Of a stretch of 52,653 bases of DNA, positions 44,860-46,409 are shown piece by piece. The notes under the pieces were generated by a model. That model ran no database searches, had not been told where the DNA came from, and worked only from the letters and a program-made list of their open reading frames with translations. This stretch comes from a virus: the UHGV virus genome UHGV-0083175; one strand, given 5' to 3'. A program made the translations under genes and the position numbers. Position 1 is the stretch's first letter. Each line of letters opens with the position of its first letter.

Positions 44860-45057
44860 GAATTATCCTATAAATCACTCTTTATTGTTTAGTTGTTAAT
44901 TATTTTTAATCTGTCTTGTCAGAAAGTGCGAAATCGATCTTGTATTTACATTTTGTTACATAATATAAATTGAACTAAGAATTTGTATTAAAATATTTTA
45001 ATTTTTGTTCATGACATCTAAATGCATGAATAGTTCAGTTTAAATAAGGATTAAATC

Positions 45058-46212
45058 ATGAAAAAAATGACAGTGGCACTTTCTGCTGTAGCAGTGGCAG
45101 TGATGTTTGCTGCGGGGGCGCAGGCAGCAGAAGTTTATAATAAAGATGGTAATAAACTGGATCTTTACGGGCGTGCAACCGCTCTGCATTACTTCTCGGA
45201 TGATAAAGGTAATGACGGAGACCAGACTTATGCTCGTCTCGGCTTTAAAGGCGAAACGCAGATTAATGATCAACTGACCGGATTTGGTCAGTGGGAATAC
45301 CAGTTCTCTGGTAACAAAACGGAATCTGAAGGTTCCGCGGGAAATAAAACCCGTCTGGCATTTGCAGGTCTGAGATTTGCAGATGTTGGTACCATTGATT
45401 ACGGACGTAACTATGGTATTGCTTACGATGTCGGATCATATACTGACGTACTGCCTGAGTTTGGTGGTGATGGCTGGACGCAGACCGATAACTTTATGAC
45501 GGCCCGAACTTCCGGTGTCCTGACTTACCGTAATACAGACTTCTTCGGACTGGTTGATGGTCTGAATTTTGCGGCGCAGTATCAGGGCAAAAATGAGCGT
45601 GATGACCTTCAGAAGGCTAATGGCGACGGGTATGGTTTCTCGGCCAGCTATGAGTTTGATGGTTTTGGTTTTGTCGCTGCGTATACCAAGTCAGATCGTA
45701 CTGATAAGCAGGTTCAGGGGTTGAATGGTACTGCAGATGTTCTTGATCCTGCATCAGGTAAAAAGGTTGGAGAAAAAGCAGTTGACTCAGGTAGTGTGGC
45801 AAAAGGTAAACATGCTGAATTCTGGGGAACTGGTCTTAAATATGATGCCAATAACCTGTATCTGGCAGCAGTGTATTCTGAAACCCAGAATATGACGACC
45901 TTTGGTGATCAAGGTGTTGCGGATAAAGCTCAGAATATCGAAGCCGTTGTTCAGTATCAGTTTGATTTTGGTCTGCGCCCGTCCCTTGCCTACCTTCAGT
46001 CCCGCGGACAGGATGTTATGGTTGGTGGTGTGAACCATGGCGATCAGGATCTGGTTAAATATATTGATGTCGGTGCGACTTATTACTTTAACAAGAATAT
46101 GTCCACCTATGTTGATTATAAAATTAACCTGATTGATGAAAGTGAATTTACCCGGAAAGCCGGTGTTGCGACAGATAATATCGTTGCTGTGGGTATGACT
46201 TATCAGTTCTGA
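45058..46212 (+). CDS. outer-membrane general porin (OmpC/OmpF/NmpC/Lc family), moron
   Basis: Signal peptide [39 protein letters not shown], porin beta-barrel repeats, C-terminal ...VAVGMTYQF; own AT-rich upstream region. Confidence 0.85.
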
Positions 46213-46385
46213 TTATTGCTGATAAGTTAATAAATACGGGCCGTCTGCCCTTACAGGCGGCCTGTATCAATGAAAACACAGTTTTCATTGGTCACTGCGA
46301 TCAGCAATTGCCATCTGGCATGTGCTGATTTAACTTTCTGTTATTACCTTTATTGGTTTTATTTTAAATTGGACTTTTATTGTTC

Positions 46386-46409
46386 GGGGCGCGTCTGCGC
46401 CCCTTTTTT
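46386..46409 (+). terminator. rho-independent terminator after the porin gene
   Basis: GGGGCGC-gtct-GCGCCCC followed by TTTTTT. Confidence 0.65.

Follow-up and report, generated by a model that had tools for sequence, protein, structure and literature searches.

Why a prophage should carry a complete outer-membrane porin gene in the middle of its tail genes, and whether that gene works alone, is the question raised by a 1.56-kb insert in the virus genome UHGV-0083175. The window, as the whole 52,653-nucleotide stretch analysed is called here, holds this insert between minor tail genes M and L. Three parts make up the insert: a regulatory region, an intact porin gene of the OmpC/OmpF family, and a conserved structured RNA that ends in a terminator. 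Together they appear to form a relocated and diverged relative of the Lc/NmpC-IpeX module of lambdoid prophages, set apart by a new slot, its orientation and a hypervariable fifth surface loop (L5). The role modestly favoured here is a porin swap in lysogens, in which the phage porin would replace host OmpC and OmpF, leading to receptor change and exclusion.

The cassette between M and L and its porin

Alignment of the junctions with porin-less relatives places the ends of the insert at about 44857/44860 and at 46421. An earlier note on this DNA, made from the sequence alone, had marked 44860-46409 as a porin gene inserted between M and L; its coordinates were essentially exact, and the insertion is a clean one between genes that are adjacent in related phages. 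The cassette and its flanks are as follows.

44518-44859, plus strand: minor tail protein M, the left flank (PF05939, E 3.2e-33)
44860-46421, plus strand: whole inserted cassette, consisting of regulatory region, porin gene, structured 3' untranslated region (3'UTR) and terminator, recognized by GC content, the junction and conservation as a unit
46386-46409, plus strand: intrinsic terminator GGGGCGCGTCTGCGCCCC followed by T6, with a stem of seven GC pairs at 46386-46403, kept in all alleles and in IpeX (taken here to be the 3' region of nmpC)
46410-46421, plus strand: cassette-borne leader ATGGGCGGATAT before L, identified from the junction alignment, with ATGGGYGGA kept across most prophage alleles
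46422-47120, plus strand: minor tail protein L, the right flank (PF05100, E 5.5e-93; TIGR01600, 374.8 bits)

In the porin-less phage Stx2a_1447 the stop codon of M and the start codon of L overlap (CTGATG; …GTGGTGAACTGATGCAGAAT…), and homology between this junction and the window ends after …GAGCAGGT and restarts at ATGCAGGATATTCA. M and L are also contiguous in about 150 other phages, counted over phage records that cover both genes. The insertion has changed the C-terminus of M, which reads VVG* in the window as against VVN* in porin-less relatives. The T6 run of the terminator ends 12 nt before the ATG of L, and the 12-nt leader presumably serves as the ribosome-binding site of L, replacing M-L translational coupling. 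No convincing target-site duplications or terminal inverted repeats were found at the insert ends. GC content is 0.30-0.47 over 44800-46450, with 0.30 upstream of the porin gene and 0.42-0.49 through it, compared with 0.57-0.63 in the flanking tail genes. The anatomy is that of a textbook moron as the term is used for lambdoid phages of the HK97/HK022 type, with extra DNA between adjacent genes, deviant GC content and a terminator of its own; the AT-rich upstream region, the strong terminator and the moron reading that the earlier note had proposed are all borne out in this respect. The definition is also drawn from PMC8065619.

The porin open reading frame (ORF), at 45058-46212 on the plus strand, encodes 384 residues and is intact. 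Residues 29-384 cover positions 1-337 of the 337 in the Pfam model Porin_1 (PF00267, E 5.9e-144), and solved chains of OmpC, OmpF, PhoE and OmpK36 align from residue 24 to the last residue (best E 2.7e-131, OmpC). The claim of a complete OmpC/OmpF-family porin with a signal peptide is thus upheld by the full-length Pfam match, by structure alignment from end to end and by the start of the mature alignments at residue 24, and closer alignment gave no sign of truncation in the window copy. The parts of the gene are listed below; loop positions come from an AlphaFold2 (AF2) model.

45046-45050, plus strand: Shine-Dalgarno sequence AAGGA, 7 nt before the ATG, read from the sequence and invariant across alleles
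45058-45126, plus strand: signal peptide of 23 residues with cleavage at AQA/AEVYN, where alignments to mature OmpC chains begin (residue 24)
45127-46212, plus strand: mature porin (361 residues) and stop codon, from profiles, structure alignments and the AF2 model
45697-45810, plus strand: surface loop L5, residues 214-251 (38 residues), between the model's strands 203-213 and 252-264

The AF2 model, which is of moderate confidence and has low local confidence in L3, shows 16 beta strands (predicted local distance difference test, pLDDT, 73; predicted template modelling score, pTM, 0.71), with L5 as a beta-hairpin extension. The first 15 residues of the mature protein are identical to those of OmpC, and the C-terminus, YQF, keeps its conserved aromatic Phe. 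The L3 constriction loop with its PEFGG motif is invariant in the alignment. A basic ladder is formed by R39, R60, R99 and R150 (precursor numbering), of which R60, R99 and R150 are conserved; K16 of OmpC is an arginine here. The pore roles of L3 and of the ladder are presumed to be those of the OmpF and OmpC structures. Taken together these features suggest that the product is probably a functional trimeric general-diffusion porin. Variation among alleles is concentrated in L5, for which 17 distinct segments of 15-40 residues are found among 49 members of the clade (14 residues in OmpC, 19 in Lc); variation is lower in L6, and L4 is short.

In more than 100 genomes the Prokaryotic Genome Annotation Pipeline (PGAP) names this protein 'porin OmpC'. 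The name is a family label and does not indicate orthology. The porin scores 507.7 bits against the NCBIfam 'porin OmpC' subfamily model NF007841 (cut-off 484) and falls under the cut-offs of the PhoE and OmpF equivalog models. Alignment with NmpC, Lc and OmpC, the comparison that had been proposed for it, gives 67-69% amino acid identity to the Lc/NmpC type and 64% to K-12 OmpC. Because the gene sits in a prophage tail operon and is only 64% identical to K-12 OmpC, it is not an OmpC orthologue.

Of 5426 complete E. coli genomes, 109 contain the whole cassette; its allele classes stand at approximately 100, 95, 91, 86, 80 and 79% nucleotide identity, and it is kept as a unit down to 79%. Carriers include Shiga-toxin-producing E. 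coli (STEC) as well as commensal, mouse and plasmid backgrounds. Every prophage locus inspected has the cassette in the M-L slot, including the lambda-type tail module of mouse E. coli 8178. Among IMG/VR contigs whose porin is at least 84% identical, L lies downstream in 30 of 30 and M upstream in 29 (the remaining contig is cut at its end); among 50 NmpC-type IMG/VR contigs (69%), none has M or L within 2.5 kb. Since the same cassette recurs in the same slot in 92-109 complete E. coli genomes and in 30 IMG/VR contigs, its presence in the window is not due to chance. The phage collection contained no DNA match to the insert, about 150 records matching M and L only, and its best phage-encoded porins are of the NmpC/Lc/'OmpD' type (67-69% amino acid identity, tblastn). 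No homologue above 68% was found in species-representative genomes, so the clade is phage-borne. A literature search found no description of a porin in the M-L slot, of its 3'UTR or of its loop diversity; subscription journals were mostly uncovered, and this is absence of evidence only.

Damaged or displaced copies also exist. Two plasmid loci (L093 2231-2276 and L094 3813-4309) carry the same porin clade at 79% amino acid identity beside IS66 and Rop. These copies keep the 5' region, the 3'UTR and 46 nt of the 3' end of M, and L094 has a decayed L, so that they derive from a prophage tail segment. At locus L097 (2501-3583) allele P0021 (78%) is without 27 residues spanning strand 2 and turn 1; either the copy is defective or the deletion arose in assembly. 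At locus L010 the neighbouring M gene is frameshifted.

Both non-coding parts of the cassette are under purifying selection, being more conserved than synonymous third positions. In the 79% allele class, identity is 73.5% in the 3'UTR, 79.2% in the 150 nt upstream and 59.9% at synonymous third positions; in the 86% class the corresponding values are 94.8, 67.1 and 69.9%, the low upstream figure reflecting an allele whose distal upstream segment differs. Alleles with 56-60% identity at third positions, which is nearly saturated, keep an intact ORF and 84-96% protein identity.

Upstream, 198 nt separate the start of the insert from the porin ATG, and three elements stand out.

44913-44928, plus strand: conserved block GTCTTGnCAnAAAGTG, possibly a regulator site, nearly invariant in 11 diverged alleles
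44945-44964, plus strand: OmpR-type box TTTACATTTTGTTACATAAT (K-12 ompC C1 is TTTACATTTTGAAACATCTA), kept in all alleles
45005-45010 and 45029-45034, plus strand: putative weak promoter with -35 TTGTTC, an 18-nt spacer and -10 AATAGT, proposed from block conservation

The core of the box, TTTACATTTTGWWACAT, has a single exact match in the 52.6-kb window, where 0.01 would be expected even with up to two mismatches allowed, and one allele carries the exact ompC C1 core. (The OmpR site names C1 and F1, and the roles that go with them, are assumed here.) The box, the AAATTGAAC block that follows it, GTTCATGACA and CATGAATAGTTCA are kept across otherwise diverged alleles, and the last two are partly kept upstream of lc in phage PA-2. 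Counted by hand from the box, AATAGT lies at +85 as compared with +89 for GAGAAT of ompC. These features point to a weak, activator-dependent promoter with transcription starting near 45041, a leader of about 17 nt, and the OmpR-type box at approximately -96 from the putative start, as in ompC.

The structured 3'UTR and its predicted targets

The sequence between the porin stop codon and L is a conserved structured RNA and more than a terminator. Its elements are the following.

46213-46412, plus strand: structured IpeX-like 3'UTR, 200 nt after the stop codon (folding, covariation and covariance model R1)
46234-46267, plus strand: hairpin 1 of the 3'UTR fold
46268-46290, plus strand: hairpin 2 of the same fold
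46299-46330, plus strand: hairpin 3 of the same fold
46327-46384, plus strand: single-stranded 'seed' stretch (…UUAACUUUCUGUUAUUACCUUUAUUGG…), nearly invariant in allele alignments, between hairpin 3 and the terminator

The minimum free energy of the 3'UTR is -78.2 kcal/mol (z -8.67 against shuffled sequences). Four helices are kept across 12 sequences, 10 of them distinct, with 97.6% of cells paired as compared with 35-46% in a control with slid partners. Compensatory change is seen in nine base pairs of the helices, a number reached by none of 500 shuffles.

The 3' region of nmpC is the IpeX locus (PMC12197685), and IpeX is described as an RNA derived from the mRNA of the phage porin that reduces OmpC and OmpF (PMC12197685, PMC8065619, PMC5745476). 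Covariance model R1, built from nine tail-cassette 3'UTRs and containing no IpeX sequence, finds the PA-2 and DLP12 IpeX loci at full length (41.8 bits, E roughly 5e-7). Directly after the porin stop codon it has a match in each of the 50 NmpC-type viral contigs, scoring about 40-43 bits, and it matches all 30 tail-type contigs at 193-236 bits; nothing was found with it after chromosomal OmpD-like porins of other genera. The only other matches, all weak, lie at micF positions: in E. coli (E 0.58) the match overlaps annotated micF, and in other genera the matches lie upstream of ompC, where micF is expected. Separate micF-like motif matches upstream of Enterobacter ompC were dropped, as neither Rfam nor reading of the sequence confirmed them. 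An Rfam scan of 44000-49500 gave nothing relevant and is uninformative, as the DLP12 IpeX control locus also gave no match; from this control IpeX appears to be absent from Rfam.

The seed stretch matches the 5' end of micF at 21 of 25 positions in local alignment, which only 2 of 1000 shuffles do, and it resembles the 5' end of MicC as well. Aligning the seed to micF, micC and IpeX in MAFFT was uninformative, and local alignment was used in its place. Pairing with porin mRNA leaders was assessed as duplex energies of the single-stranded stretch, each against 500 shuffles; unrestricted duplex folding of the whole 3'UTR against the leaders had given long, meaningless duplexes and was replaced by this procedure. 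The predicted energies are as follows.

Window seed with ompC leader, -56 to -4 including the Shine-Dalgarno sequence: -31.2 kcal/mol, z -3.5
Window seed with ompF leader: -28.6 kcal/mol, z -2.7
MicC (validated control) with ompC leader: -26.5 kcal/mol, z -3.3
IpeX region with ompC leader: -26.7 kcal/mol, z -4.5
Window seed with the cassette's own leader: -26.3 kcal/mol, z -2.95

The predicted pairing of the seed with ompC is at least as strong as that of the validated MicC control. Predicted pairing to the leaders persists across alleles, and the ompC leader itself is conserved in 5366 of 5426 E. coli genomes. The seed is therefore predicted to be antisense to the translation-initiation regions of ompC and ompF, across their ribosome-binding sites.

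Possible roles in the lysogen, and the surrounding prophage

How might such a cassette serve a lysogen? Under the porin-swap reading, the weak OmpR-type promoter, with its C1/F1-like box about 96 nt before the putative start, would drive the porin gene in the lysogen, and the terminator would keep the cassette transcript out of L, insulating the tail genes. The product would be a trimeric general-diffusion porin with intact pore-lining residues and an allele-specific long L5. The 3'UTR, released from the transcript or acting within it, may behave as an IpeX-like RNA whose MicF/MicC-like stretch lowers expression of ompC and ompF by pairing across their ribosome-binding regions. The net effect would be replacement of the host porins by a phage porin with a different surface, such that permeability is kept and porin-dependent phages and colicins lose their receptors or meet altered ones. 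In the lytic cycle the terminator would be passed by Q-modified polymerase, and the tail genes would still be expressed. The suggestion made earlier for this gene, that it could alter outer-membrane permeability or the availability of phage and colicin receptors, is strengthened by these features and is plausible.

Several points weigh against this reading. A simple sigma-70 consensus scan found no plus-strand promoter upstream of the porin gene, for which reason the promoter is proposed from conservation only, and OmpR binding is suggested by sequence resemblance. Target specificity is not established because the leader of the cassette itself also scores as a target of the seed, and the duplex predictions ignore accessibility and Hfq. 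According to a review, IpeX does not act by complementarity alone (PMC12197685). The E-values of R1 are rough, and the central part of the model aligns poorly with IpeX. Self-exclusion cannot be argued because comparison of tail protein J, described below, leaves the phage receptor unassigned, and any benefit may now be the host's only, because the terminase gene terL of this prophage is split by another element.

The alternative with an appreciable, if minor, chance of being correct is that of a plain accessory porin, useful against bile or antibiotics, for nutrients or for antigenic variation, with a 3'UTR that serves only as terminator or mRNA stabilizer. Intact pore residues and the spread over STEC, commensal, mouse and plasmid backgrounds are in keeping with it, the hypervariability of L5 would fit immune or antibody pressure equally well, and the in silico pairing of the seed with its own leader blurs the case for an RNA directed at the host. 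What it does not explain is that the single-stranded stretch linking hairpin 3 to the terminator hardly varies though termination does not need it, that this stretch resembles the seeds of two anti-porin small RNAs (sRNAs), and that the 3'UTR is related to IpeX, which has been reported to lower OmpC and OmpF (PMC8065619).

A late-lytic function, not lysogenic conversion, is improbable. The porin would here remodel the surface of the dying cell and stop progeny from adsorbing to debris, in the manner of Llp of phage T5. Such a function would suit a cassette that lies on the late-gene strand and always in the tail block, within a Q-antiterminated operon, nmpC and lc being antisense, and phi330, a phage that depends on OmpC (PMC12502783), has a J protein 85% identical to that of the window. 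Against this, a conserved regulatory region with an OmpR-type box and a terminator belong to the cassette itself, which is what expression in a lysogen would require, and the cassette has been retained on plasmids and in a prophage whose terL is disrupted. A lytic cycle is, moreover, short compared with the time needed to assemble porins and dilute out the resident OmpC. That the cassette is silent or decaying cargo, a hitch-hiker with no current function, is very improbable: some copies are damaged, as in the 27-residue internal deletion at L097 and the frameshifted M beside the cassette at L010, and the consensus scan gave no promoter, but the ORF stays intact, with 84-96% protein identity, at 56-60% third-position identity, both non-coding flanks are constrained and the RNA helices covary.

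The porin-swap reading can be extended, doubtfully, to a two-component receptor-swap unit that serves both phases of the life cycle. L5 would be engaged in an arms race with phages and colicins while an RNA that mimics MicF and MicC silences the host porins; the OmpR-type promoter would provide exclusion in the lysogen, and read-through by Q-modified polymerase would reduce the loss of progeny to debris. The tail-type cassette and that of the Q-S region would then be two ancient lineages of one mobile porin-plus-sRNA module, able to move to plasmids as well.

Small antibiotics enter the cell mainly through porins, which many phages and colicins use as receptors. The additional porin described here, annotated simply as 'porin OmpC', is present in about 2% of complete E. 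coli genomes, including many Shiga-toxin producers, and comes with what is predicted to be an anti-OmpC/OmpF RNA. If the porin-swap reading is true, the cassette alters the range of phages, therapeutic phages included, and of colicins to which carrier strains are open, with a possible shift in antibiotic permeability. The cassette further provides a second, independent lineage in which to study 3'UTR RNAs of the IpeX type, and its natural L5 variants, at least 17, are a ready panel for mapping receptor specificity.

The tail block around the cassette contains, besides M and L, the following genes.

41283-44525, plus strand: tape measure
47131-47874, plus strand: K (C40 peptidase)
end at 48452, plus strand: I
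49130-52603, plus strand: J

The receptor-binding domain of J is 83-89% identical to that of Stx phage J proteins and 52% to that of lambda J, the protein by which lambda binds LamB. The J protein of the siphophage phi330, whose need for OmpC has been shown (PMC12502783), is 85% identical overall and about 68% in the last 200 or so residues. A receptor call from J was dropped since the hairpins that contact OmpC in phi330 differ in the window, one of them by a 5-residue deletion. The phage receptor is likely a trimeric porin-type protein, to judge from these relatives.

Elsewhere in the prophage, terL is split into an N-terminal fragment (22099-22380) and a C-terminal part with the TerL nuclease domain (31975-33333). 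The 9.6-kb element between them encodes a tyrosine integrase (22544-23779), an AAA_25 replication-type ATPase, a single-stranded DNA-binding protein (SSB), a small-terminase-like protein and a capsid-family protein. It looks like a capsid-forming satellite of the phage-inducible chromosomal island (PICI) type integrated in terL, and with terL split the prophage as it stands may not be inducible. The gap between I and J (48453-49129) comprises about 680 nt with a GC content of 0.44-0.48 and no ORF above 54 residues, and is unannotated in RefSeq as well. Within it a 92-nt direct repeat occurs three times, at 48523, 48718 and 48958, with 64-86% identity; the repeat copies gave no significant RNA structure (z +0.05 to -1.8) and no Rfam match.

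In other, related porin-bearing prophages the L-K junction holds genes for a ClpP-like protease, an Arc repressor and an Ant-like protein, and the I-J junction holds sodC (neighbouring tail-junction cargo loci: L005, 8285-10310 and 11922-12449; L006, 8306-10318), so several junctions of the tail block act as cargo slots. A near-identical prophage is integrated at ompW in strain 2013C-3033 (L001 28403-37700), where a Hok/Gef toxin, a YadA-type adhesin and a 1330-residue S6-family serine protease autotransporter of the SPATE type (serine protease autotransporters of Enterobacteriaceae) lie downstream of J. The window ends just after J, short of the region that holds this cargo in 2013C-3033.

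Comparison with known systems

The cassette shares with classical morons (lambda lom and bor, sodC of Gifsy-2 and O157 prophages, and those of HK97) the insertion of a single gene with its own signals and deviant GC content. It differs from these in its cargo, a general porin with a linked RNA, and in its slot, the M/L overlap. Among non-phage proteins the nearest relatives are Salmonella OmpD and the OmpD/OmpC-like porins of Citrobacter and Enterobacter (66-68% amino acid identity), which are chromosomal and whose genes are followed by no R1 match.

With the chromosomal ompC-micF/ompF system the cassette has in common the porin fold, the pore residues and, for ompC, an identical mature N-terminus and a collinear layout from OmpR-type box to -10. 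In ompC-micF an anti-porin RNA is also linked to a porin gene; there it is a divergent gene, whereas here it is predicted to be the porin gene's own 3'UTR. The window porin is, however, only 64% identical in amino acids to K-12 OmpC, it lies outside the micF-ompC-rcsD locus, and its leader is probably short (about 17 nt).

The closest known system is the Lc (PA-2)/NmpC (DLP12)-IpeX module, likewise carried by lambdoid prophages of E. coli, and PA-2 reportedly confers a conversion phenotype through Lc. Its porins belong to the same OmpC/OmpD-like group, the window porin being 67-69% identical by tblastn and 72% identical to Lc in the alignment. The region upstream of PA-2 lc shares the TTACAT…TTGAAA box (CTTACATCTTGAAAT) and the -10-like block AATAGTTCA. 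The nmpC/lc 3' region has the same layout of three hairpins, single-stranded stretch and terminator, and shares CUUCUGUUAU…UACC(C)UUUAUU and the GGGGCG…CGCCCC-U terminator with the cassette.

The two lineages differ in position and in detail. In nmpC/lc the porin gene is antisense to late transcription and is flanked by Q and the lysis genes (DLP12 has the order quuD, minus-strand nmpC, essD; in PA-2, lc sits beside Rz in opposite orientation), whereas the window cassette lies between M and L on the strand of the late operon. Identity is at least 84% within the tail type among viral contigs (at least 78% over all database matches) and 69% between the types, with no intermediates among the viral contigs, and the two clades are discrete. 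L5 has 19 residues in Lc, whereas it is long and hypervariable in the tail type, which has a short L4. The seed of the tail cassette is closer to MicF than is that of the IpeX region, and the hairpin sequences of IpeX are unrelated to those of the tail cassette. The window porin represents a sister clade to Lc/NmpC, and as judged by sequence comparison the promoter features, the coding sequence and the 3' RNA are all related to the Lc/NmpC-IpeX module.

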